The notes below the pieces were generated by a model. The model was given only the letters and a program-made list of their open reading frames with translations. It was not told the origin of the DNA and made no database searches. 64,000 bases of DNA. Origin: Aplysia californica (Eukaryota). The stretch lies in the NCBI RefSeq assembly GCF_000002075.1, contig NW_004797486.1:929806-993805 (forward strand), given 5' to 3'. Each line of letters begins with the position of its first letter. Position 1 is the first letter of the stretch. Shown here in pieces: positions 8,142 through 28,742 of this stretch. Both the position numbers and the translations under genes were made by a program.

Positions 8142-8867
8142 TACCCCCAGTGGGTCGGGGGGATATATATATAGACCCACTGCTCCGCCAGCAGGAGGTG
8201 CAACCCCTTGACTGGTGAGTTGTCGCCCATGGACATCTACGCTCAGGTGCACATGGGCGACACTTGTTTTGGTGTATCGTCTGTCTTCTATCATCATCTT
8301 TCTTCCTTCTTGACGGGGGACGGGGCTTTCGTCCTTCCCCGAGCTGACCGGGGAATAAAATACAAATAGTTCCCCCCCCCCCCCCCCGGGCTGGTGGGAT
8401 GCCACTCGTACGTCACTAGCTCTTTGACGTAGGGGTGACATCTTTTGTCCGCTCTTGTTATGTCTTCTGTCCATCTATCTATCTCTCCGATCTGTTGACC
8501 GAAGGTCCGGTCCAGCAAAAAAATAGACCCCAAATCCCCGCAACCCGAGGCACCCTGTTGACCGTGGGGTGTGACCCGAACGACCGGAGAAGGGGACCCT
8601 GGTGGCTGAGGTGTGGCTTCCCACACCAACACTCCACTTTGGCCCTGGATTCGGTCTAGACGGGCGGGTGCAGCGGCCTACAGCACTCAATTGGTTGCGA
8701 CCGGTTTTTGGCCAATCTTGGTTAGAAGGCAAGATTTCTTGCCGTCTGATTTGGGAGTATACCTCCAGGGTAACCCTGACACCAGCTATAGACTTCCGAG
8801 CGGTGTCCCCTTGTTGGACTCGGTGGCGGGTGGGGAGCCCTGGAGATGAATAAAAAACAAAATATAC

Positions 8868-10310
8868 ATGGATTCAATCAAAAACATTTCTCCCACCCCA
8901 GTTCCCAACAAGTCCCAGACAGGAGGAGCAGGTGCAACTCCTGGCCTGGGCAAGAGAAAGAAGGGCCTTTCGGGCGAAGATGCTCAGCATCTGGGACTTA
9001 CCAAAAAGAACATCATTGGGGTGGTCACCATTTCTGGTGATCTCCCCAAAAGATGAAAATCAAAACATTAATCTCACAACACTAAGCATTTTCAAGATAC
9101 ACAAGTCACTAAAAGATTTCGGTATACACAAACCAAAATACATTAAAAACCTAGGATCCACGGACCTCCTGATACAGGTCAGTTTCAGTATAGAATCAGG
9201 CAAACTGTTGGCCTGCACCTCGTTTGGTGGCATCCCTGTAAGTGTTCAGCCTCACAGACGTGTGAACGCATCCAAAGGTGTCATCAAAAGTCGAGAGCTC
9301 TGCGGCTGTACGGAAGAAGGGATTGTTCAGGAGGTCGATGGAATTGTCCATGCTCGTCGTATCAAAATACGGCGTGATGGCAAGGAAATTTGTACCAACA
9401 CGTGGATCCTTACCTTCAACACACCCACACCACCAACAAAATTAGACATCGCATACCCAGAACTCGAAGTAAGACCATATAATATACCGAAACCGATGCG
9501 CTGTTTCAACTGTCAATGCTTCAGACATACACAGCTGTGCTGTCATCGTGGTGCAGTGTGTCCTCGCTGCGGCAAGGAAGGACACTCTGGGGAGACCTGC
9601 TCTGTAGATCCCTGGTGTCCAAATTGTCGACAGGGGGGTCACACTGCATCTTCGACGGAGTGTCCGAAGTGGTGTCAGGAGAAAGCCATCCTCACACATA
9701 GGGCCCAGTACGGCGGAACGTTCACTCAAGCAAGAGCAACGCTGTACCCAAAAGGATCGACGCAAAAGAATACAGCAAAAACATATTCAGAAGTTCTGAA
9801 GACAGTCCCAGGGTCGGTACACCCAACCCGAAAGGTCCTTCAGACTGGAGATGGAGGAGGACAGGGAGTCCACTTCCTCCCCTCCTACCTCTCCCACCCT
9901 CCATCCGCCTTCTCCCCACACCCCCTCTTCATCACCACCCTCTCAGTCATCTTCTTCATCCTCACCCCCCTCATCATCCTCACCCTCATCATTCTCATCA
10001 TCACCCCCATCATCATCTTCACCCACAACATCCTCACCATCATCATCCTCACACAAATCACCACACCCTACACCCTCATTGCTTCAACCTCCATCCTATC
10101 ATCCTTCATTCAATAATGTCCATCCACCCACTCCCAGCACCCGCTCCCCCTCCTCTACCCGCATCCGGGACTCCGGTCCTCCTCCCCCTCCACACTCTCC
10201 TTAAAAAAAAAGCTGCAGTCCACCGTGACCGCAGCAAAACAAAACAAAGACAAAGGTCACCTACGACCCCCCCAAAAAATGTACCGAACCCGTGCCCTCA
10301 AAATAAATAA
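8868..10310 (+). pseudogene. LINE A ORF1 (nucleic-acid-binding, zinc knuckles), frameshifted
   Basis: Pieces in ORFs 8868-9056, 8932-10116, 9851-10204 and 10116-10310; homologous to LINE B ORF1 (SKGV(I/V)(K/R)S.EL.GC..E.IV). Confidence 0.8.
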
Positions 10311-11075
10311 AAATGGCAGTTCTTCAGTGGAACATTCGCGGTTTGCGTGCAAACCAGGCAGAACTCTTATCTTTTGACCTCACACACCCCAAATGTAATC
10401 TGTGTACCAGAAACTAAATTGCCAACACCCACATTCACATTAAACAACTATCAAACTTACAACCAAATATACACCGACAACCAAATCGCCTCTGGGGGCA
10501 ACTCCATTTTAATAAATAACCAAACACTACACAGACAAATACAACTAAACACAACACTTCAGGCAGTTGCGGTCAGGGTCACCCTACACCGTCCTATAAC
10601 TATCCGTTCAATATACATCCCTCCAAATTATCCTCTATCTTTAAGTAAGAGAACTAATAAACCTCAGAGACCAGCTCCCATAACCCTTCATCATGTTGGG
10701 AGATTTTAATGCCCATAGCCCTCTTTGGGGAAATGAACCAACTAACACTAAAGGTAAAATCATAGAAGATTTCTTAACAAAAACTAATACTAGTATTTTT
10801 AACGACAATTCCCCAACATTTCAAAATTCAAATAACCTAAACTTTTCATCCATAGATTTAACCCTATGTGATCCTGACCTAATTCCAGACTTTCAGTGGT
10901 CGGTCCTGGACTACCCACACGGATCGGACCACTTCCACATCAACCTAATTCCAGACTTTCCACACCGAACTCCTATCCCGGACCGTTTCAATCTTAAAAG
11001 AGCGGACTGGGATGGGTTTCACATGGAATGTCTGGAGAAACTCAATCCATCTCAAACACAAACTTTTGAACGATT

Positions 11076-11925
11076 CGTCGCCTATCACACGAAAGGGCGT
11101 ATTCCAGATTTTGGCAGTTTTGAGTTGTTACTTGTTACTACTAGTAGATAGCGCTGCCTCAGATCTATGTTCACACGAAACGGCGTATCCCTAGCTTTAA
11201 AATAGCAGCACTAGCAGTAAAAAATCAAAAAGCTAACACTCAGCGCCAACGAATCAGACGAAACGGCGTACACAGGCTTATGCCTTTTCGTGTGCAAAAA
11301 ATGATACAAAGTTTTATCAATTCTATTCGCACGAAAAGACGTATACCTTGGATACGCCCCTTCGTGTGAGCGACAGGAACACTTTTGTCTTTTTTTCTGG
11401 CATAGGCCAGGGCCGTATAACGTAATATCATAGTAAAACTAGATTCTAGGCCCTCCTCTAATGATGCAATAGGCCGGATACACAACACAGAGTACACGCC
11501 TTGTGCTGCAGCGAATCCTGCTTGTGCAAGAGTGAAAATGAGGCAGTCCTTATTGTGTTGCCTTATTATTATAGCCTACACTTGGTTACTGTTGCTTGCA
11601 GCTTACTGTCACACACAACGTGATCTGCTTGTCTGCTGATTATTGGAAACCATTAGAAAAAGCAAACTTGGGTTTGATCAAATTTAAATCAGATCTACTT
11701 TTTGTCCAACAATACATATGAATATTGCTCAGCTATATATATATATTTTTCCAATAGTGTATTATTCTACACTCATTAACTAGAAGGCAACGCTATCTAG
11801 ACACCCTCCCCCAGGGCAGTGCTACTGCAGTGATAAAAACATCAGGATTTAGACTTTGTTATATTGAGCCGAAGACAGGTCTACTAGGCGAGCCATGTAA
11901 GTTGCCCCTAAATGTTTATATTTTA

Positions 11926-11994
<69 letters not shown>

Positions 11995-13749
11995 ACACAA
12001 GAAACTCAAACCTAAATCGTTCTTTAGCTTGTACTCAGACTGTCGGGATTTTTCTTGTGTATTAGGCCCAGAATGGCAAGTTCGCATTTCAATGAAAGTG
12101 ACTCCGACTTTGTCAGATGACATTCCGTTAGCTAAACTTTGAAATGTAGGCTTACAATGAAAATTGAATTTTCTGATCAACACGAGGCTGAGAATGAAGA
12201 CACGTCTCTTGGCCTGGGTGACTTCGATGATTCGGACACGGATCATTTCCTAGAAGTTCCAGTATTTTGTAGTCAAAAGGAAAGACAGGGCAATCAACAA
12301 ACTCTGAATCCATATGAAACCCACTGTAGTAACGAACGGCTACCAGAATCATTTGAAGTTGAAGAGTAAGCCCGCCAGGCGTCGCCAAAGAAACGAAGAG
12401 AATCATCTCGAAGAACGATGCAAAAAAGAAAGCGACAATCTGGCGAAGAGTACATGAGCGCCGACACGAAAAAGGTTGTTCCAGCACGAATGATGGGAAA
12501 GGGCTGCGTTGGAATGGAATGTACGAGAGCTGGCCGTCAGTGTTCTGGAATCTCAGGAAAGGACAGGAGGGAGATATTTCAGGACTTTTTCAGGACAGTT
12601 TATAACCTGGCTGACCTGCAGAAGCAGCGAGAGTTCGTTGCGTAGCATATTGTGACGACTGAGCCCAAGCTCTTGACGCAGCAAAACGCATGCTTATTAC
12701 ATCACAGTCAATGGAAAGCGCTTGAAAGTGTGTAGGAACACATTCTTTGCAACCTTGGGTATTTCAGAGAAATGTGCCCGAGTTGTTTTGTCAAAGATTA
12801 CGGAGACCGGCATTGTGGAAGAAGACAAGCGAGGGGGCAGGCAATCGGAGCAGATGAAGACAAAAGGAGAACAAATTAGGGAGATGACCAGTCAACACAT
12901 AGACAGATTTCTACGCGTGGAATCGCACTACTGTAGGGCCTCTTCCAGCAAAGAGTATCTCGACCCAGACCTCACATTGTCCAAAATGTACGACATGTCC
13001 GTGAAAAAAATCCATGCAATGACATCCCAGGTTTTCACACATTTCAGACGAGTGTTCAAGACAAAAAAACCTGGCCTTTCATAGTCCTTAAAAAGGACTA
13101 ATGCTCACTCTGCAACTCTTAATTTATAATAGGCACGATGCAGAAAAACAAAAGGTGCGACAACTTAGGGAGGATTGCAAGAAGATGGTTCAAGCTGACC
13201 CCAGCATTCTGGCTGGGAACTTTGATCTCCAGCAGGTCATATACTTGCCAATTTCACATGAAGATGCTTTGTTCTANNNNNNNNNNNNNNNNNNNNNNNN
13301 NNNNNNNNNNNNNNNNNNNNNNNNNNNNNNNNNNNNNNNNNNNNNNNNNNNNNNNNNNNNNNNNNNNNNNNNNNNNNNNNNNNNNNNNNNNNNNNNNNNN
13401 NNNNNNTCTGAAGACTGAAATTAATAGTGTGGACACTCAAACACAGGGCGTGTACATGGGCGTATACACTGATTTTGGACAGGACAAAAAATTGAACAAT
13501 CACACGAAAGGGCGTATGCCAACAGATGGCACATTTTCGAAGTGAAATTATAAAAAACAGTGCAAAACTAATCTTGCTCGTTGTTTGATATCTTATCATG
13601 CCCACATTATCCAAATATCCCGATGCTAGGATGCAGTTTACTAAAATGACAAGGGAAAAGCATGAAGCAACCAAAGTCTGAAAATCTTTAAATCGCTCTC
13701 CTGAAAAAGTAAGAAAACAGGGATACGCCCTTTCATGTGACAGGCGACG
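11076..13749 (+). mobile_element. Sola1-type DNA transposon
   Basis: ~29-bp TIR cgtcgcct(a/g)tcaca(c/t)gaaagggcgtat; 4-bp TSD GATT (11072-11075, 13750-13753); transposase remnants VCRNTFFATLGIS, DKRGG, ESHYCRASSSKEYL, FDLQQV. Confidence 0.85.
11925..11998. repeat. (CA)n microsatellite
   Basis: Directly visible, inside the Sola1 element. Confidence 0.95.
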
Positions 13750-15724
13750 GATTTCATGAAACCCTTCTCGAAATCGTTCAAAAACACATACCAAAATTAT
13801 CCATCAAACCCCGAAAAAATAAATGTTGGTTCACTGAAGACTGCCAAAAAGCTGTTGCGGCCAAAAAAATCAGCTCTCAGGAAGTTCGTCAACTCTAAAA
13901 CAAACGAAGACCTCATTAATTTCAAAATTGCGCGAAGAATAATCAGAACGGCCAAAAAAATAAACATCTTTTCGAAATTATGTCTCTAAAATAAACAACA
14001 ACACACCAATGCACAAAGTCTGGAAGATGATAAAGAAATTAAAACGGACTAAAAAAGACACAATCAAACACATCCTAAAACCGAATAACTCCTTCGTAGA
14101 AACCGAAAAAACAGTAGCTGACTGTATAGCATCAACTCTTTCCGGAAATTCCTCTACCCACAATTACAACCCTGAATTCAAAAAAATAAAAATGTCTTCT
14201 GAAAAGACAACTGTTGATTTTACCTCTTCAAATGAAGAAAACTATAATTGCAGATTTTCTCTTAATGAATTAAAATGTAATATTGCAGAACTATCAAACA
14301 CAGCTCTAGGCCCTGATCAAATACACAACGAAATCATCAAACGTCTTCCAGACGAAACACTCCTATTACTCCTTGATATTTACAATGAACTCTGGCATTC
14401 TCAACAATTTCCGAACAGTTGGCGTTTTGCCACTATTATACCAATCCCAAAACCAGGAAAAGATCACTCTAATCCATCAAACTACCGTCCCATAGCCCTT
14501 ACAAACTGTTTCTGCAAACTTATGGAAAAACTTATTAACAAACGTCTAATGTGGTTTCTCGAAACCTCAAACTCCTTATCCAATTTCCGATGCGGTTTTC
14601 GCAAAAATCGCTCTACTATTGACCATCTCGTCCGACTTGAAACTTTCATTCGGGAAGCTTTCATTCGAAAAGAGCACCTTGTGGTTATTTTTTCGACTTA
14701 GAAAAAGCCTTCGACACCACATGGAAACATGGTATTTTACAATACCTGCGTGACTTGGGCTTACGCGGAAATCTTTTCAAGTAAAAGTAGGTTCAACCCT
14801 ATCAAATTTACACACCCAAGAAGAAGGTGTCCCCCAGGGAAGCATCTTATCGCCCATTCTTTTCGAAATCAAAATCAATTCCATCCCAAAAACCCTTCAA
14901 ACCAATATTGACTGCTCACTTTACGTTGACGACTTCCTGATCTGCTATAAATCCAAATCCAAAATGGTTCACATTGAACGCCAGCTTCAGCTGCAACTCC
15001 ATAAACTGGAAACTTGGGCAAACGGGCACGGGTTCAAATTTTCCACATTAAAAACAAACTTGGTACATTTTTGTTTGTCGCACAAGTGTGTGCGACAACC
15101 AGATTTATATTTGTTCGGAGAGAAAATTCCTGTTAAAAAACAAGCTCGTTTCCTGGGCGTAATCTTTGACAATAAACTTTCTTTCCTGCCTCACTTGAAA
15201 GACCTAAAGACGAGGTGTCAGAGTGCTCTCAACGCCTTAAAAGTATTATGCAATCCTGAATGGGGAGGAGATACTGAAATACTTCTTTAACTTTACCGTT
15301 CCCTTGTCCGTTCCAGATTGGACGATGCCAGTCCTGTTTACGGATCAGCCAGAAAGTCTTACCTCAAAATTTTAGACCCTGTTCAGAACCAAGGCCTTCG
15401 CCTTTCCCTAGGCGCTTTTCGTACTTCACCTGTAGAAAGTTTAGAGGCAGAAGCGCATGAACCATTTTTAGAACTTAGAAGGAAAAAACTCTTTGCAGTA
15501 CGCTTTGAAACTTAGCTCAGTCCCCCAAAACCCAGCCAACAAATGTGTCTTTGGCTTTCCCGAAGATCTAAAAACTCTAACCTCCTTAGGAAATAAAGTA
15601 AGCCCTTTCGGAATAAGAATCCAGAATCTTAAAGACATTGATTTTTCTGAAGACATAATCGAGCCCTTTGCCATGTCCAGCATACCTCCATAGCATTTAA
15701 CCAAACCTAACATAGATACTAGTG

Positions 15725-17563
15725 ACCCCCAGTGGGTCGGGGGGATATAAATAGACCCACTGCTTCGTCTGCAGAAGGTGCAACCCCTTCAAAGGCGGAG
15801 TGTCGCACAGGGACCCCAACCCTCTGGGATCCGTGAGCGACACTTACTTTGGTGTATCCTCCTCTTCTCCTTCCTTCTTTCTTTCTTCTTCTATCTTTCC
15901 TACCACCGCTGACCTCATGTGCAGCAAAACGAGAGGTCACCCATCCCACAGAGTGGGCGCCTTGTTGACCGTGAGGTGCGACCCGTGCGGAGGGAAACCG
16001 GGTACCTGGCGGTTGAGGTGAGATCAGTCCACGGACTGTCCCTCACCAACACACCTCTTTGGCCCAGGTTTTCCTCTTAGACGGGAGGGTGGCACGGCCC
16101 ATGCCACTCAATCGGTTGAGAGCTGAAACCCCATCAAGCCCTGGGTCAATCTTGACGGGAGGGTCTTGTACTTTCTCGTTGAGAGTATAGCTCCGAGGTA
16201 GCCCTGGCACAGGTCATCCGAGCAATGTGTCCCCTTGTTGGGCTCCGTGGCGGGCGGGGAGCCCCGGAGTCGAATCAAATACAAAACTCTCATGGTATCC
16301 AAATCAAAACAAGACCCTTCCCCAGCTCCCAACGTTAAAAAGTCTCGGCTCGCGGAAGCGGGTGCGGCCGCCGAGCCGAGCAAAAATTCAAAAACCAGTA
16401 AACGGACCTTTACCGTTGCTTCTTTCCTCCCTTCTCCCAGGGAGCTCCCGAAGCAGCCGTACGTGGCCATCTGCTGCAAAGAAGACGCACAGAAGAAGAT
16501 CACTGATCTAAATTTGTTCAAGACGGGAGATGCACTACGACAGGTTCTGGGATACATTCCTACGAATGTCCAGAAGCTGTCCTCTGGTGTACTCCTCGTC
16601 AAGTGCGCAACTGAAGACGAAGTGACCAAACTCCTGGATACCACGACCTTCGGCGGTATTCCATGTAGGTCCGAGCGCTACCAGAAATTCAACCGCTCGA
16701 AAGGCGTCGTCCGCAGCCATGAGCTGAAAGGCTGCTCCATGGAAGAAATTGTGGAGCACTGTGAGGGAGTGGTCGAAGCCCGCCGGATTACTCTTCGGCG
16801 GGGAGAGACTACTATTGAAACGAACACGATCGTCCTTACTTTCGAATCGTGTCGCCCTCCAGCCACCGTTCGGGCATCTTACTTGGTACTCGACGTACGA
16901 CCCTATGTGCCGAACCCTCTGCGCTGTTTCAAGTGTCAGAAGTTCGGCCATAGCCAGTCACGGTGCGTGCTCCAGTCTGTGGGAGAGCCACTGGGAAAAA
17001 CCAGAAAAATAATAAACTATATGAAATAAAACCCAAACTAGAACAGCGAAATCCTTCGGATCTCTCCAGAAGAGACGAAGTCATTTTTACTCGATTGCGC
17101 ATCGGACACACTGCCCTGACCCACAAATACCTCCTACAGGGAGATGAGAAGCCGTTCTGTGTCGGATGCGACACAGATTTTACCATTAGACACATTTTAA
17201 CAGAATGTCTAGACTTTGGAGAAATCCGAAGGAAATATTATAAATGCAAGAAATTGCAGGATATTTTTTCTTTCGTTGTTCCCAGCAGAATTTTAAATTT
17301 TATAAAGGCCATTGGCCATTATGGCGAGTTGTAGAGTGAATTTGATATTTTTAAAAATTTTTATTGTTACTTAAAAGTCGTTTTAGATCACAAATGTATT
17401 TACACCGAATTTGAATATTTTAACTTTTTAGCATTTTAAAGTAAATTAGTTAACCAGTCGTGAAGTGAACTTTCGCAGAGGTGAACAACTTGTGTTTCGC
17501 GCGCTCATATGACCTTAGCAGTTGCGAGCGCCGTAAAACCTTATACTATACATACATACATAC
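15725..17563 (+). mobile_element. I/Nimb-clade LINE 'B' 5' part (5'UTR + partial ORF1) fused to a LINE 3' end (ORF2 C-terminus, 3'UTR, (TACA)n tail)
   Basis: 5' end cccccagtgggtc like LINE A; ORF1 from ATG 16292 to first knuckle RCFKCQKFGHSQSRC; then jumps to RRDEVIFTRLRIGHT...CVGC...HILTEC*; terminal stem-loop and catacata repeats. Confidence 0.85.
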
Positions 17564-18222: not shown

Positions 18223-18297
18223 ATTCGAAGTCGAAAGGCAGAAAAGTAATTACACAAATCGATAACTTTTAAAAATCTTAACACTTTTTCGTTTCAG

Positions 18298-21200
18298 CGC
18301 CGCAAAATCAGCAGATATGGACGACGGAAAGCGGCCCTCTGATTCCAGATGCGAGATCACAACTGCTGTCTGTATACCCTTACCGGTTAGCTGGTCCTGC
18401 GTACGCAACACAGCACCCTGGAAATTTGAATCCTTACGCACAGGCTTTTTGGAATCATGCTGGCGTTAGACTCCCCCCAATGTTGGCTGGACACACCTTT
18501 AGTACCATGTCTGCACCTGGTCCGCAGTGGATTCCGGGAATGGCACCTTCGAGTAACTTTGGAATAGGAGCTCCACCAATACCATATTATTATGGGATGA
18601 ACCCGACAGTGACCTCAGCTCAAGACGGTCGCGAATTAGGTGAAATCGTTAGAACAGATAAAAGGCAGAACACTAATGACGATACGCGTATTGACTCTGA
18701 CCCTAATAAACAATTCTACGAGCCAATTTCTCCCCCTAAAACAAGCCACACAGAATATGAGGCTCGAGCTCGCACTCTCCAGTCATCTTTGAACTTTGAT
18801 CGGCAATCGATGCACAATATTTCAGCCTTTCATCATCAGTCTCAGCCTCAACCAACGTCCTCGTTTTCGACAGATTATCCATACCATCGTTCCAACCAGA
18901 ACGTATCGGGGCCTGTGTTTCCACAAGGAGTACAGACTGGCCAATACTCTCCAATTTGTCGCGGTTCAGGAGGTGTAAAAAAATCGGAAAACTTGCGGCG
19001 AAAAGCCCTCTTGAACTCAGCATCATCAGCTCTAACCGTTACTGATTCAACACAACCACCGAATGCTGCACTGGATCTAGCTACAAACGTAAACGACAAA
19101 GGGCCCGAGAACACCTCTTGCGTCTCCAAACCATCATCAGATAACCAAACGACGTCACTGGATCTGGTAAACCGACAGAACTCGGCAACTTCTTCAACCC
19201 ATACCAAAACGTCTCATCACAACCCTGGCGATCAAAGCAATCCTTTACCCCAAATTAGCCAAGAAGAATTAACAAATCGTTATTATCAAGCTATGTACTC
19301 AAACTTAACGCAGTATGACCATCAAGCAATCCTATCTGATACTTACCAGGCGCAATTATTACGGAGTATGCTTTTAAATTCCCCTAATGCGCAATTCGAT
19401 TATTCAAAACATGTTCTTCTGCAAAACCTTCCTCCTGGCGATAGAGTCAGCCATTCTGATACTACTATGCTCACCCAAAACAATTCAACAAAGGCATCAT
19501 CTCGAGCATCCAAGAGGACAGAATCTACTGTAAATGTCGGTTCTTCAACGTCTAGGCAACACGCACAAGTCACTCTAGGAACAGAAAACTCTGGACCATC
19601 TGAGGCAGTACAGTTTCCTCGGGATTTCAACTATTTTAATCGTTTACATCAGTCAGAACATTTGGCAGCGCCAGTGAGAGTTCCGGAACTGGCACCACCA
19701 CAACAAAATTCACCCCGCAAGGCAAAAAGGGGCGGTAAAAACAGTAGAGGTGGAAGAGGGAAAGGTTTGCAAAATGCTGGCACTGGAACCCCAATTGAAT
19801 TCCTACATCAAGAGGCCCCGGCAGAACCGACGATTTGCAGTTCTACTATGGTTAGCACTGGAGCTTGCACAGATGTTTACCATCCCACCCAATCGTCAGC
19901 CCATTTACAACAACCAAAGCAGCAGCAACAATCACTAGAGCAGCTCCAAAGACAGGCGCTTCAGCATCAGGACCAAGATCAACATCCACAGCAACAGCGT
20001 CAACATCTAGAACAGCAGCCACAACAACAACAGCGTCATCATCTAGAACAGCAACAACAACCACAACGACCAGGACAACTACAACAGAGTCCACAGCCAG
20101 AGCAGCAGCAGCAGCAACAACAACAACAAAAACAACAACAGCAGTGTAAACAACCAAATCAGCAACCACAGCGCCATCAGCCTGAACAGCAACAACAGCA
20201 GCATCAACAGCTAGAGCATGAGATACAACAGCACCAAAAGTCAGAACTACAGCTACAACAGCTAGAACAGGAACAACAACAGCGTCTGCAAGTCCGTGAA
20301 CAGCAACAGCACTGTCTAGAGCTAAGCCTACAACAGCACCAAGGACTAAAGCAGTACCAACAACTTAAACAGCTGGAACAGCAACCACAACAGCGCCAAC
20401 AGCCCGAGCAACAACAAGATCAGCAACAACAAGATCAGCAACAACAAGATCAGCACCAACATTCAGAGCAGGAACAACAACAGCACCAACAGCCAGAGAA
20501 GCAGCTACAACTTCAACATCGATCACCTCATAAAGCTCAACAGTCCGCGCAAATAGGAAACCACCAACAACATCAACAAGAGCAGTGGCAAAACCAGCAA
20601 GATTTGCCACAATCTGAACAGAGAAGAATAAAACCTCATGAACTGGAGCTGAAACGAAGAAAACAGTTACAAAACCAACAGATGCAACAGCAGCAGTGGT
20701 GGACACCGTCACGTCCTCCATACCTTATGAAAAATGAGAACCGTGCATCTGAAAATTCTCAACTTTTTGATTTGGGTAGAGGGTCGGCAAACGCGGGCCA
20801 ACTGGTTGGTAATTTGTCTTCCGAATCCCTGGAATCCGCAAAAATTAATTTATCCGATACTCTTAGAGACAAATCTCACTCTGTTACCCAAACGTCACAG
20901 AAACCCAGTTCCAGTTCTTTTCAGCACAACATTGTCGCTAAGGCTCATCGAAAAGATTTTCCTTCTCAGACTTCAACACATTCACAAGAAACCGCTGAAG
21001 GCTCAGAGGAAAATGTTTTTACTCATGAGAGAGTAAACAGCAACATTCCTAACTTGCAAGAAAATGGAAATGTGCCTAAGCAAAAACGTTCTCAGAATCA
21101 GACACTTCAGCATTCTCGATCTATTGTGAGCAGTAATGAACTCTTTAACACTGGTCAAAATATTATTACAAATAGTCCAACCACTGAGAAAAATGTCAAT

Positions 21201-24200
21201 GATGCTTCACTTTCTACTAACATTTCTTCGCCGCAACAAACAGCCCAATTTTTGTCGAGCAGTAATCTAAACCAAAAAGACAACTGCAGTGCTGATTCCA
21301 GGTCTACTTTGGATACTATATCAAACACCCGAATGGAATTGGTTGACGAAGTAGAAATCACAGGAAAACTAATTCCTGACAGCAAACAGACCGAAGGCTG
21401 GGGATATTCACAAACCTCTTCAAAAACTGCCACGACACACACTTTATCTGAAGCAGGGTTGGACGAGAAAAGTAATGAGGTTCATACTAGAACACCTTTC
21501 AATAACTCTAAAGAAGAATATGAAATTGGGTTATCGGTTCCCAAACATTATGGATGGTGGCAACACAAGAAAGACGACAAACATTCCAAAGGTTTTATGC
21601 ACCAGGAACATGAACAATATGTATATCCAAATATAGGTGGTCATAATAAGATCTCTAATGACGGTGCCTCTATCACTAACTTCGAAGAACATCGCTCAGA
21701 GATAAAAAAGAGTGAGCAAATATTCGATCAGCGAGCAGGGCATGGGGATGGTTGTACTAGTGCCCATTCTAGCGTTGCAGAAGTGGTGAAATCACCAGGA
21801 AATACATCCTTACTTTCATTTCCGAGTGAACGCTTCAACCATGTCTTCAACACAAGGAATGAGAAAAATCTTGCGAAAGCGCAGTTCAAAGAACAAAAAT
21901 CTTTGTATAACATACACGATTCGGGTACGAAGATGACACGGGTGCAACATGAAAGTGATGACCCTGGTTTGTATGCAAACCAAAAACTGTCATTCGGTGG
22001 TACGATTGGAGGGGAGTACGATCCAGTGTCATCAGAAGTGCTGTTGCCAAAATGTCGCCGCGGTACTGAAGAAGGTGATTCTTTCATCAATTCTCCCGTG
22101 AAACCGGAGCTCTCTTATCAAGATTCGAGTCAAAGACAAAAGGATGTCAGCTCGTCAGGACCACTTGAGCCTCGCTCTGAATCTTCAAATGTATCGACCT
22201 CTTCCCATTTACAAGACGGTTCTCAACCGTTTAAGGACAACTCAACAAGTAACAGAAACACACATCCTGTTCCTGAATATGCCCAGTCATTACTTGGCCT
22301 AAACAAATTAACTCGAAATTGGCTACCCAGTAATACCCAGGAAAGCGGACCTCAGAATGTCTTAACTGGCAAATATACTCACTCATTTGGAGAATCTGGT
22401 CCTTCCAAAATGGTTCCCCCAAAAAGCGATAATGGAAGGGGGAAAATTCTGGATTCCATTGTGAACTCTCTGCATTCTAACCAGAGACCGTCAAATGAAC
22501 AAACTGTAAACAGTCGTTTGTCGAATTCTTGTGACACTAGGACGGCTAAAAGAACTTGCACCGATGATCAAGACTTCAACAGAAAATGGCAAAGGGTTCC
22601 CCAAGCCCTTTCATACTTAGATACTCAAGTTGAAACGAATCCTGAAAATCTGAGTGGAAAACAAAGCTCTAAGCAAAGTGACCAAGCTGACAGTGAGCTA
22701 ACAACATCCTCGATACTTGCCACAATACCCCCAGGATTTTACGTGGATAATTACCAGTCTATTCGTGCCGCTGGCTCCGAATTCCCCAAAGGAGATGGAT
22801 CGAACAATACCCGGAAGGTAAGTGATCGTTTTAAGACTGGTGAGGACGATTGTTCTCTAATGAATTCACAAGGAGATCAGGGACACTTCTCATTGGGAAA
22901 AAGACCGGTTAGGAAGAATTCGTGTCGACAAATATCAGAACCATACAATGTTACAAATATAAATAAAATGAATAATCACCTGGTCTTACCTGATACTCGT
23001 AAAGAAGCACATACCATAAACAGGCAATCAAGGCATAAACAGAGCGGCTTTTATCTGGAGAAAATGGAAGGGCCCCAAACAAAGAAGGGCCGTGTGGACA
23101 AGACAATCGTAAAGCTTTTAAATATCGAAGAAGTCTTATATCAGGCGGAAATGGAATTTCTCCAAGTGAAGAAACGTCATTTGGAAGAGGTAATAGCTAA
23201 AATAAGGAATGCCAACAGAAGCTCAAGTCAGATAAAAGAGGAATTGCTTCGCCAGCACACACACCTGGACGAGAAAACAAGTCAGTTCTATCTAAAAAAT
23301 ACTGTGAAACGCACTGCTGCTCATACTGGTCAAGAGGCAAAGGAGTTTATAAACAGCGATGGCAGTAAGAAAGCGGGCCTCCAGGACCTAGAAAACTTGT
23401 TGCGTATTGAGGGAACACATCGTGAGGAGACTACATTTCAAAAAAATATAAAAGATAAACACTTTGATCCGTGCGCTCTCATTAGGCTCCAGTCAAAGAG
23501 GCTGCCGGTGCAGGGGCAAAGCTCAGTTCAAGCAACCGAAGTTTCTACAGCAGGAAAAAGACTGCTTGCACCTTCGATAAACGTACATACTTCACAAAAG
23601 GAAAGAGACCATGGTGAAACTGATTGCTTTGGCCACAAACGTGCAAAGACGGAGGACCAAGTCGATAAGCGAAACATAAAAGAAATTAATGAGGAGTTTG
23701 AACTTACAGGCTGGTCACCGAGGTCAACAGAGCTACAGTTGAGGAACAGGCAGTTGATCAGTTTCCAGGCACCGGCAGAGTTGGTAACTACTCATGGAGA
23801 ATATGTCCCTACTCTGAACGTTGTGGGGAACTCTGAACAAAACAGTGATAGGGCAAGACGGTCGGTTGAGCAAAATATAAGCACACGAAACATAAACAAG
23901 GATTCAGATTCGAACTCAAAGCTCGAGAAGGCGAAAAAGAATCGGAAACCAACCGACTTTTATCAGTGTGAAAGGATTCTCCAAAAAGCGAAGAAAACAA
24001 ATTCATCAGCCAAATCAGCCAAAAAAATTGCCGAGAATTCTTTAAAGTTGTCGAAGAGCATTGTTTCTAGGAAGAAAGACCCACATGGATACAGAAGGCT
24101 TGCTGGTACCGGTAACTTACATTCGACAAAAAATCCAAAGAATAGACCAGTGGGTTCCCCTATGAAGATATATGATATCAATCCAATACGGAGGACTTTC

Positions 24201-27200
24201 GGAGACGACTATTTTGACGACGTTCCTGTAGTAGGAAAATACTCATCTGGAAGTGGCAGAGATAAGTGTAGACGAACTGCGGAGGCAAGTGGCGAAAGAG
24301 TTGAGCTTTCTACAAAACTCTACCACCCATGTTCAAGTTTTCAAAAGGCATTACGCCAAACGCGGAAAAAAGACAACGCTGTTTCTTTGACACCAGTGGC
24401 ATCAAGGAAACACGACACTGTACCTTTGCTTCATAGGACCCCGTCTAAACCCAATCAATCATTGTCAAAAAGTTCGAAAAGAAATCGAATTGAATCAAAG
24501 TGTTCAAAGAATATAAACAAACGAATTGATGGATGTTCAAAGTTCAAAACTCGTCTTCCAAGTCTCACACACGGTTCTAGAATCAAAAACCTTGAAAACT
24601 ATGCCTATGCACGAGAATTAAGCTTGATTGAGAGGAAAGGTGATAAGATCAAGCCTGCCCTTTCCTCGAGTAAGCAGGTACAGCACCCGTCACCCAAACA
24701 TGTATGCGCTTCTGGAACTGAGAATACAAGTGAATTTGAAAGACACGTAAACAAAGTGAAGAGACGCTCTGTAACTTTGAAGCGAATTTGTTTCAAAACA
24801 AAAGACAAAACCACAACGTTTTCTGACACAACAGCACAGCGAGGACGACCCCACTTGGCAAAGTTCAAAACGAAAGACTATTCTCCAGCAGCGCTGCCTA
24901 ACACAACACCCATGCCTGTGTCCGCTGGAGTGAGCACAAGCACGACAATAGCCTCTACAGTTCTAAGTAGTAAAATGGCAAAATCAACGGACTCGACAAT
25001 GAAATCACTCACCTCGAAAAGTAAAGCAAAGCATCGACAGTGCTCAAAGTCAAGCCCAAAAGCTGATTCTCCAATAATACAAGTGCTTCCACGAAGGAGT
25101 GTTAACAAAGCAAGAACCTTTAGCGTTTCAAAAAGTCCCATGAAACGATCACCAATACCACAAAGCAGATCGAAACAATCCATAGCTAAAGACGGGTTTA
25201 TTTCTCCTCTATTAAGCCCACCGATACATGTGCCTCCCCTAGCGAATTCAAGCTTGGTCAGCTCCCTTCAATCCCCAAAGAAGACATCAGGAAACATTAC
25301 TATCAAATCTTGTGCCACTTATACTTCAACAAAGCACCTGTCAGTAACTTCCAAGGCAATGCGCCAGTCTACTCCAACTAATCGTCTGACAATTAAGTCA
25401 AAGGCAAAGCGCCACTCTCTTGAAACGATCAGGAGTGTATCTCCGCAGATGACGACAAACAGAACCGAGAGATATATTCCGAATAAAAAGAGAAAAGAGT
25501 CAGAAGTCATGAAACAAACGCTGGAAAAACGAGGAATATCAATACAATCGACAGAAAACGATGAGTTTTTGGCAATGCATTCTAGCATGGCCAAACCTGT
25601 GCTTACACAAGTGAATACACATATGACTAGGTGCCCTCATAATATTCCAAAGATAATGAGGACAAAATCAGGAGACATGCCAGTCGAGTGTAAACAGAAG
25701 CTAACCCGTATACATTTTCTAAAGAGACACACAACGGGGCATCATCCCAAAGCAAAACAACAGAGGGTAACCAGAACTGCACCGTACCAACTAGGTTCAA
25801 GCAGCATTAACTCTTCTCACACCCAAAAAGAAAAGACAACGAGACCAGTGTTTTCGACGAAAACTTCAAGAGAACAAAATATGAAGTCCTCAAAGAAGCC
25901 CATTGCTCTTGTAATGCAGGCGAGCCAGTCTAAACGTGGGTCTAAGGGAGAAGTCTTGATCAAATTTACTGAGCCACCCACAGTTCAAACGACATCGGTC
26001 CAGGCGGAAACGTCGCTTTCTGGAGATGACCTGCAAAGAAAACAAAACCAATCAAGAGAAAAGGAAGGAAGACATGATCTGCCAGCGATGAACTTAAGTG
26101 TTTCCAAGGCCGTGTTCTCATCAATGAGTAGAATCTCGCCGGCGACAAGTAATCGTTATGAGAAGACCAACTGGTTTGGAACAAAGCCAGTTGTCATCTC
26201 CAATGAGGCTGACGACAAGAATCTGAATAGAAAATCTACGCCATCTCTGCCTGGTTCACGGAGACAAAAGCCGCTTATAGAAACATTAATAACGAAATCT
26301 CCGTCCTGTTCTGAAAACTTGAGTAACAGTTCTGTATGCCAGGTTCGGCAAACAGCAGGGGCTCTTGGTGATAACAAAATAAGTAATCCAAAACATACAC
26401 CTTGTGCAGCAAGCACAAGTTACACTGCGCTTGTCCCACACAGTGACACATCATTGGGAAAGTCGAACCTCGAGTCTGCAAAGGGAATACACGTAAACCA
26501 AATCAAAGCAAATCTGTGTAGGAGCAAAACCCGTAACGTCAACACAACCCGAGGTAAAGACAGCGGAGGCCGAGTTTCAAAGTATTCCGGCCTGAAACCT
26601 TCGTCTGCACAAAGAACTAATCTTCAATTGTATAAAGATTCCATAAGCTTATTGCCAGATGCGTTAAATAGTCTGAAAAAGAATTCTACTGTGTCTAGCG
26701 GACTTTCTTCATCGACGACATCAGAAGCGTCATTGCAAACTATATCAAATAGAAACCGAAACAATAAAGTGAGCTCCCACAGCATTAGAAGGAATTTTTC
26801 ACCTGGACAAAAAGGTAGCGAATATCAATTTACAACTCCAGCTACAGGGAATATTGACGAAAGCACAGAATCAAACTATAATGTAAAGCAAGCGCTAACT
26901 CCAAATTCTACACGAGAGACTCTAATAATTACACCCATAAACAAGGTTCAAATGGCGAGTTCTGTATCAACAAAAAAACAAGATCCAAGAGAATTCTCTA
27001 AGTTTTATAATCAGAAACGTGTTGAAAAACGGCAAGGGTCTTTGCAAAAATCATCTGCAAATGAACTAAGCCAAATGCCACTTCAAAGTGCGATAACTGT
27101 TGCTGTAGAACCAACGTCCAGGCCATTAACTGATGGTTTGCCGTCGGTACCCTTCCAAACGACAGAAACCGTAGTGGTCACATCATCGCCTCTACAGTGG

Positions 27201-28742
27201 CCCCCGCCAGCACCAGACCCAGCACATATCGCTATCAAGTCAGCTGAGAGAGTCAATCCACAAACGCTCGGGCCGGCACGAGGAGTTTTCCCAAAGACTG
27301 CGCCAAAAGCCTCTAGAATAACACCATGTATATCGTCCTTGGCTACACCTCTCTTTATACAGCCCCGGGCCTCTAATCTTCCATGCATTTCTAAAACCCT
27401 TATGTCAGGGCCATATCCCACAAAACTCCAACACGTTCCCTTACCTCAAAACTCGCCACTATTCCAATCGTTCCCACAATGTGGCCACCCACAGCAAACC
27501 GCCTTGCCTTCCGAATCAAGAACCCAGTCCTCACTGCCACAGAACTACTTAACATGTCAACTGATGCCACAAAGCTCAGCGTTGTCGCTTTTCACGCCTG
27601 CGACACTGTCAACTCAGAATCGAATGGGAGCGTGGTCCGTAAAAAGAGGTCTTTTACCTGATCCTGTAACCCCCATACGGCAAACAGTGCCAGAACTGTC
27701 GTATCTGTCAGAACTACCACCATTGTGTACGCAATCCCAATCGTTGATGACGCATTTCCCGCCTACCTCGCAATCAGGATCATTCCATGCTCAGCTAGCG
27801 CCAGTTTTATCAAGTTCAACCGTGCCAACACAACAAGCACTGCCTACAGCATCATTCCCATCACCACCACCTCCACCACCATCATTACCACCACCACCAC
27901 CCCCACNNNNNNNNNNNNNNNNNNNNNNNNNNNNNNNNNNNNNNNNNNNNNNNNNNNNNNNNNNNNNNNNNNNNNNNNNNNNNNNNNNNNNNNNNNNNNN
28001 NNNNNNNNNNNNNNNNNNNNNNNNNNNNNNNNNNNNNNNNNNNNNNNNNNNNNNNNNNNNNNNNNNNNNNNNNNNNNNNNNNNNNNNNNNNNNNNNNNNN
28101 NNNNNNNNNNNNNNNNNNNNNNNNNNNNNNNNNNNNNNNNNNNNNNNNNNNNNNNNNNNNNNNNNNNNNNNNNNNNNNNNNNNNNNNNNNNNNNNNNNNN
28201 NNNNNNNNNNNNNNNNNNNNNNNNNNNNNNNNNNNNNNNNNNNNNNNNNNNNNNNNNNNNNNNNNNNNNNNNNNNNNNNNNNNNNNNNNNNNNNNNNNNN
28301 NNNNNNNNNNNNNNNNNNNNNNNNNNNNNNNNNNNNNNNNNNNNNGCCACCACCACCACCTCCACCCCCATCCCCATCATTACCACCACCTCCACTTCCC
28401 ACATCGCCGCCACCCCCACCACCTCCACCACCTCCATCTCTACCAGCCTCACCATCGTATTCACGGTCATCATCACCATCCCCACAACCATTCTCACCAC
28501 CACCACCGCTCGCACAACCATATTCACCATCATCACCACCGCTCGCACAACCATATTCACCATCATCACCACCGCTAGCACAACCATATTCACCCTCATC
28601 ACCACCGCTATCCTCACCTTTATCACCACCGCCGTCGCCACTATCACCGCCACCACTATCACCGCCACCACTATCACCGCCACCACGTAAGCGTTCACGG
28701 ACAGCTTATCACAAAGTCGTATATACAACTTTCCCCCGCTAA
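18298..28742 (+). CDS. Giant exon encoding ~3,480-aa predicted intrinsically disordered protein (poly-Q, S/T/N-rich, basic, poly-Pro)
   Basis: Uninterrupted frame >10 kb (one N-gap inside the poly-Pro tract); frame is open upstream of the listed TTG back to a polypyrimidine acceptor tttttcgtttcag at 18297; AATAAA at 29522 and 29541. No domain recognised. Confidence 0.85.

Follow-up and report, generated by a model that had tools for sequence, protein, structure and literature searches.

A conserved two-domain RNA leader upstream of ORF1 in Aplysia LINEs: a putative IRES-like element

Two related long interspersed nuclear elements (LINEs), A and B, are present in a stretch of 64,000 nucleotides of Aplysia californica DNA (assembly GCF_000002075.1, contig NW_004797486.1, positions 929,806 to 993,805 of the forward strand), referred to here as the window. 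Both carry a structured RNA leader between the head at their 5′ end and the start codon of the first open reading frame (ORF1). We consider it somewhat probable that this leader is an element resembling an internal ribosome entry site (IRES), which would position the small ribosomal subunit at the ORF1 AUG directly. This reading is suggested by several observations: selection acts on a fold of the RNA strand and held in held-out GTDB sequences; the distance to the AUG is fixed despite a variable middle region, and the linker has the length seen in termination upstream ribosome-binding sites (TURBS); all leaders contain upstream AUGs, and the RNAs of ribozyme-headed relatives are likely to be uncapped; heads are swapped while the leader stays; a second type of leader likewise stops ~13 nt short of the AUG; and the short interspersed elements with a 'LINE promoter' head (LP-SINEs) retain no more than the first ~70 bp of such 5′ untranslated regions (UTRs).

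An ORF1 alignment scan of metagenome contigs returned 446 relatives, a partly redundant set; the counts given here use the best 80 of the 446 (34-47% identity). One or both leader domains were found upstream of ORF1 in 54 of the 80: the 5′ domain in 33 with the covariance model R1 (24 of these 33 belong to its training set), the 3′ domain in 52 by pattern. Seven had a different leader and 19 had neither, 11 of the latter with less than 350 nt upstream. In the held-out test, a DNA pattern alone gave six matches in GTDB. Five of them scored 124-129 bits with R1 and all five continued into the 3′ domain and then ORF1, while the sixth (L219) was due to chance. Four of these five leaders (L216, L218, L220 and L221) lie in records titled as genomes of bivalve symbionts; LINE DNA in such records is likely to be host DNA, present as contamination. 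The fifth (L217) is in a Chloroflexota metagenome-assembled genome. The 12 + 1 pattern matches in IMG/VR were also due to chance, being phage-like DNA without leader or ORF1 (L201 and L213 fail the leader model), and no ORF1 relative was found in that database. Pattern searches of the source genome returned only A- and B-type copies and no further leader family. The leader was thus found in the source genome, in bivalve-associated records and in metagenome contigs.

As judged by comparison of these sequences, the leader is a two-domain RNA: the 5′ domain measures ~160 nt, and the 3′ domain is a stem that opens into a predicted four-way junction (Table 1). In a plain MAFFT alignment of the 5′ domain, 25 of 34 pairs showed two-sided change (RNAalifold); the alignment fitted to the model itself gave 26 of 34, with 94% of cells paired compared with 38-42% in slid controls, and both figures are to be read with that fitting in mind. 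For the 3′ domain the count was 16 of 28 (20 rows). A tree-aware covariation test, similar to R-scape (G-test, tree-shuffled null, E<0.05), found ten significant pairs overall. Six were in the 5′ domain (32 rows, partial and identical rows left out), where the top nine pairs were all inside predicted helices, and four were in P1 of the 3′ domain (24 rows, after removal of 5 near-duplicates, 3 long-insert rows and 5 unparsed rows). All six pairs of P7 change on both sides, four of them at E<0.05. In the junction, two-sided change was observed in P2 and the base of H1 and none in H2 and H3 (20 rows); the latter two are indicated by conservation and wobble pairing, H3 being in part built into the parsing pattern.

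The loop of P0 (15968-15971) likely pairs with the strand behind P7 (16113-16116) as a pseudoknot, as each of the four pairs is kept in 28-30 of 30-31 rows, with one compensatory change, which occurs in the A/B lineage. No significant covariation of these pairs was detected in the tree-aware test. Two further tertiary pairings were considered and not adopted. Pairing of the H3 loop with the 5′ strand of P2 as a pseudoknot was rejected and nested P2 preferred, since the variable pair of the former was kept in only 12 of 32 leaders; for a kissing contact between the P7 and H3 loops no clear covariation could be seen by eye.

Cells with G-U outnumbered those with A-C by 172 to 9 and by 77 to 13 (5 near-duplicates left out here and in the linker set), indicating that the + strand is under selection as RNA. 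The preliminary description of this DNA had proposed selection on a three-dimensional RNA core rather than on a DNA promoter motif. The covariation and the G-U bias support the view that an RNA fold, and not a DNA motif, is what selection maintains. The three-dimensional core is something we infer: for the pseudoknot, and for two of the junction's four helices, the signs are conservation and wobble pairing and not significant covariation.

The position of the leader relative to the start codon is also constrained. In 32 of 32 parsed leaders the 3′ domain is followed by 14-18 nt before the AUG, in a search that allowed 10-22 nt, and in the set of 30 leaders described below by 12-19 nt. Only 13 of 507 linker bases (2.6%) are G. 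The span from the 5′ domain to the AUG was 316-749 nt in 30 leaders, so that the middle varies by more than 400 nt with the linker fixed. In 24 of the 27 loci checked, the reading frame beginning at the AUG after the linker is at least 185 codons long. Viral TURBS elements, which are bound at the exit channel, have a linker of 12-23 nt that is ascribed to the ribosome footprint in PMC11921876. At least one out-of-frame upstream AUG was present in 30 of 30 leaders (L100 was left out of this count), each leader having 1-11 upstream AUGs with a median of 8. Their positions and frames are not conserved. Out-of-frame upstream AUGs in every leader are a heavy load for scanning.

What precedes the leader is variable. 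One head is common to L137, which has this leader, and to L093-L095, which have the other; head and leader are therefore separate modules. The second leader type, found in the seven relatives mentioned above, has an apparent pseudoknot, identified by eye, ~13 nt before the AUG, and gave no match in Rfam. It was located at L093 744-958, L108 957-1171, L124 368-582, L133 2564-2778 and L136 2295-2509, and also in L094 and L095. It shows compensatory changes in L093, its layout is nearer to that of hepatitis C virus (HCV), and it shares the motif GGYCAAUC with the first type.

A descriptor of ribozymes resembling that of hepatitis delta virus (HDV) fitted 7 of 30 upstream regions, many of which are truncated, and 0 of 150 shuffles. 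Independent insertions begin at the first helix of the HDV-like ribozyme, which together with the fold suggests that these RNAs are likely cut and uncapped. The folds lie upstream of the leader in L146, L143, L152, L105, L137, L096 and L101 and are of at least two types, undetected by Rfam 15. A similar fold in the window copy of A was discarded, as it depends on a private 17-nt insertion.

The head of B has a predicted 5′ H-type pseudoknot (15726-15730/15739-15743 and 15731-15738/15754-15761) followed by a long hairpin. The first ~40 nt of other heads can also form an H-type pseudoknot (window 15725-15761 and 8143-8181; L092, L216, L218 and L220), and by eye its second stem differs in sequence between families with complementarity kept. 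The head, which we take to resemble pistol ribozymes loosely and without Rfam support, may thus be an RNA end-protector or a ribozyme and not only a promoter. Several relatives carry the LP head of Nimb-17_LMi, I-3_DR and mollusc LP-SINEs, and the head of the window elements resembles its layout over the first ~40 nt; in PMC4758252 the LP head is a proposed promoter, and of such UTRs LP-SINEs have no more than the initial ~70 bp. To see whether leaderless derivatives have spread, 40 loci bearing the head were inspected, the majority of which continue into N. Two leaderless junctions were tested and each had one exact match in the genome, the same search giving two further matches with 2 mismatches. 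One of the derivatives with a single exact junction match, L264 67-473, is a short head-plus-tail sequence without leader that ends in TAC repeats.

These data can be accommodated by a mechanism in which the 3′ junction would dock near the mRNA exit channel of the 40S subunit, the linker of 14-18 nt would reach the P site, and the 5′ domain would help to bind 40S or eIF3. Element RNA that is uncapped after ribozyme cleavage, or laden with upstream AUGs, could in this way make ORF1p without scanning. A bolder proposal, to which we give somewhat less than an even chance, is that animal LINEs possess in this leader an IRES of a structural class of its own, so far undescribed, whose pseudoknotted 5′ domain and four-way-junction 3′ domain would load ribosomes on ORF1 without the helix-26 pairing of HCV-like IRESs and combine freely with promoter or ribozyme heads.

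Several observations weigh against an IRES-like role. Upstream AUGs show a mild depletion, with 207 counted as compared with 240 +/- 12 in shuffles, which counts against a pure IRES, and they are few in the window leaders (2 in B and 1 in A; 3 and 5 over the whole UTRs of these copies). An A at -3, found in 26 of 32 leaders, also fits scanning. The HDV-like fold, a nested double pseudoknot with a J4/2 cytosine, was not matched by the descriptor at the 5′ end of B or of the A-family copy L033, so that RNAs of families A and B, lacking this fold, may be capped. The loop of helix 26 (ES7) in host 18S rRNA is GCUUUGAUG and contains no CCC (L271 2581-2620; 18S ~1081-1120), which makes the HCV/TURBS type of pairing unavailable. 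When B is folded as a single sequence, P0, P7 and the 3′ domain come out differently in the minimum free energy structure (z -2.5) than in the comparative model, and the loci compared are partly redundant.

The main rival is a signal for packaging or ribonucleoprotein assembly in cis, bound by the zinc knuckles of ORF1p or by ORF2p in the way that retroviral psi precedes gag. ORF1p has three CCHC knuckles and the 3′ junction has invariant runs of G, exposed G being what nucleocapsid proteins bind. The binding of the R2 protein to a 5′ pseudoknot, reported in PMC6765202, also speaks for such a signal. We nevertheless regard it as unlikely: it leaves the fixed, G-poor linker unexplained, the RNA is conserved while ORF1 drops to 34-47% identity, LP-SINEs move without the leader region, and a palindromic dimerisation loop is not conserved, the P7 loop having GGCC in some leaders and AGCC in others. 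Slightly less probable again is cap-dependent translation, controlled by the fold through shunting, reinitiation after short upstream ORFs or ORF1p-dependent repression. This would fit the partial depletion of upstream AUGs, the -3 A context, a linker length that matches reinitiation elements and the possibility that A and B RNAs are capped. However, the unconserved positions and frames of the upstream AUGs, the ribozyme-headed relatives that likely have no cap and the presence of the TURBS motif UGGGA in only 13 of 32 leaders argue against it.

A catalytic or processing function of the leader, such as self-cleavage or lariat-capping, appears very improbable. Although the model leaves 16 of the 28 near-invariant 5′-domain positions unpaired, family copies begin ~230 nt upstream of the leader and not within it, no Rfam ribozyme matched, and some relatives already have a ribozyme upstream. 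A twister- or pistol-like arrangement was dismissed, as the catalytic layout of the consensus is absent and Rfam gave no match. Of all explanations, the hardest to credit is one at the DNA level, in which the conserved blocks would belong to an internal promoter. LINEs do use internal promoters and the blocks are short and GC-rich; but the compensatory changes and the excess of G-U over A-C oppose this, and the proposed promoter is the head, not the leader. The IRES-like reading accordingly remains the one we favour.

Table 1. Features of elements A and B, in window coordinates
Feature	Position	Strand	Description
5′ domain	15958-16117	+	hairpin P0, long irregular arm, hairpin P7, CAA junction
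Hairpin P0	15958..15978	+	7-nt loop; 5/6 stem pairs change on both sides
Long irregular arm	15982..16085	+	conserved internal loops UGAG/CAACAC and CUG/CUUUG; variable tip bearing the 16025-16038 hairpin
P7, CAA junction and pseudoknot strand	16087..16117	+	P7 loop with conserved RCC; CAA near-invariant
Variable middle	16118..16182	+	two hairpins and GGYCAAU motif at 16143; ~65 nt here, several hundred nt in some relatives
3′ domain	16183..16274	+	P1, small internal loop, P2, predicted four-way junction with H1, H2, H3
3′ domain stems	P1 16191-16198/16262-16269; P2 16201-16205/16256-16260	+	P1 significant; P2 shows G-C and U-A swaps
Junction helices	H1 16206-16231; H2 16232-16241; H3 16242-16255	+	H1 base: 4/4 pairs change on both sides
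G-poor linker to start codon	16275..16291	+	fixed length
Head domain, element B	15725..15860	+	module separate from leader; family copies start at 15725; aligns with heads of relatives
ORF1, gag-like	16292..16966	+	cut by an internal deletion found in this copy alone
3′ part of element B	16970..17548	+	joined behind the internal deletion
Element A 5′ UTR	8143..8870	+	head 8143-8280, leader 8552-8851, ORF1 AUG at 8868

Families A and B are multi-copy in the genome, and the 5′ ends of their copies correspond to position 8143 of the window for A and to 15725 for B. The preliminary description had placed the leader of B at 15957..16294. A leader is indeed present there, but the 5′ UTR starts at 15725 and not at 15957, and a head of ~135 nt precedes the leader. 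Element B, which has undergone an internal deletion, is inserted in ORF2 of element A; a further insertion, of ~2.7 kb at ~11075-13750, also breaks this ORF2. In intact family copies ORF1 encodes three CCHC knuckles and ORF2 encodes APE, RT and RNase H (L224, L225), a layout which we take to be that of I-group LINEs. The elements can be described from their sequences as Nimb-like I-group LINEs, the link to Nimb being solely the similarity of heads of relatives to the 'Nimb-17 homology'. The nearest named ORF1 proteins are from Aplysia (73-81%), followed by those of other gastropods, a tick and spiders. Elsewhere in the window, an open frame of 3486 codons in A-rich DNA (18282-28742, + strand) has no Pfam match.

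The leaders of A and B are identical at 209 of 285 aligned bases (73%) and the heads at 79%. For ORF1, the intact copies L035 and L018 share 59/64/34% of bases at codon positions 1/2/3 and 44% of amino acids; the comparison of leader with third codon positions that had been suggested earlier therefore gives 73% against 34%. In an A subfamily (L047-L060) the leader is ~90% identical to A and the stretch through ORF1 ~75%, a pattern that could reflect either constraint on the leader or exchange of 5′ parts.

The sequence blocks named in the preliminary description are all found in both copies (positions in B/A): GTTGACCGTG at 15964/8557, TAGACGGG at 16078/8657, CACTCAAT at 16105/8684, GAGTATA at 16183/8755, TGTCCCCTTGTTGG at 16228/8804, GTGGCGGG at 16247/8823 and GGGGAGCCC at 16256/8832. 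They had been regarded as invariant junction nucleotides. They are identical in A and B, but across relatives they are conserved rather than invariant, and many are paired in the comparative structure (ACGGG, GGGC, GGGGA and CCCCGGAG). Insertions had been thought to occur at helix tips only. This is true of the CAGTCC-AC-GGACTG hairpin at 16025-16038, whereas two other differences in length are at least partly due to decay of the window copies: the copy of B lacks 5 nt after 16209 that are present in 29 of 29 family copies, and that of A 12 nt after 8703 that are present in 16 of 18.

How LINE RNAs that are uncapped or filled with upstream AUGs are translated is an open question, and such translation has so far been credited to the ribozyme fold itself. 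A covarying module fixed before the AUG makes the question testable, as it offers defined helices and compensatory mutants. If the leader is an IRES, it would be among the few non-viral ones as well defined structurally as those of viruses and would provide naturally occurring variants for use in reporters and circular RNAs in invertebrate cells. Irrespective of its role, Rfam 15 lacks this large and conserved RNA family: searches there with the window (E<=10), 20 loci (E<=0.5) and 10 loci (E<=2) gave no relevant match, and none to the IRES models. No description of the leader was found in the literature searched, although subscription journals, Repbase notes or bioRxiv supplements could hold one.

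Among known RNAs, type IV (HCV-like) IRESs offer one comparison. The GAYA loop is a feature of type IV IRESs and is absent from the leader. The linker 3′ of P1 is variable A/U/C with no conserved complement to the H3 loop, as a IIIf-type pseudoknot would need, and the long arm has no conserved GGG loop of the IIId kind. Type IV elements, as described in PMC13034579, share with the leader a modular build, a size of ~300 nt and an irregular 5′ arm; just before the AUG they have a core formed by a four-way junction, with two short arms and a long one, of which the leader has a predicted counterpart. TURBS elements (PMC11921876) likewise have a closing stem and a short non-conserved linker, of 12-23 nt compared with 14-18 nt from GAA or 18-22 nt from the stem in the leader; the leader differs in being much larger and in having no long upstream ORF. 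UGGGA, which in TURBS is invariant and complementary to ES7, is present in 13 of 32 leaders only and absent at that site in A and B, and host helix 26 has no UCCCA. The leader is therefore assigned to neither family. The helix-26 loop does contain UUGA, complementary to conserved UCAA junction motifs in both leader types, a match of 4-5 nt that can arise by chance. As to LINE UTRs, the available text of PMC4758252 deals with the first ~70 bp and gives the remaining ~300 bp of two Nimb UTRs as without homology; the present leader does not appear in it. HDV-like and twister ribozymes at the 5′ ends of LINEs (R2, L1Tc, Perere-3) have been proposed as IRESs (PMC6765202, PMC8501958). They resemble the leader in being structured 5′ RNAs of non-LTR retrotransposons tied to translation of uncapped RNA; the leader differs from them in having no ribozyme fold and in forming a separate module after the head, tied to the AUG.
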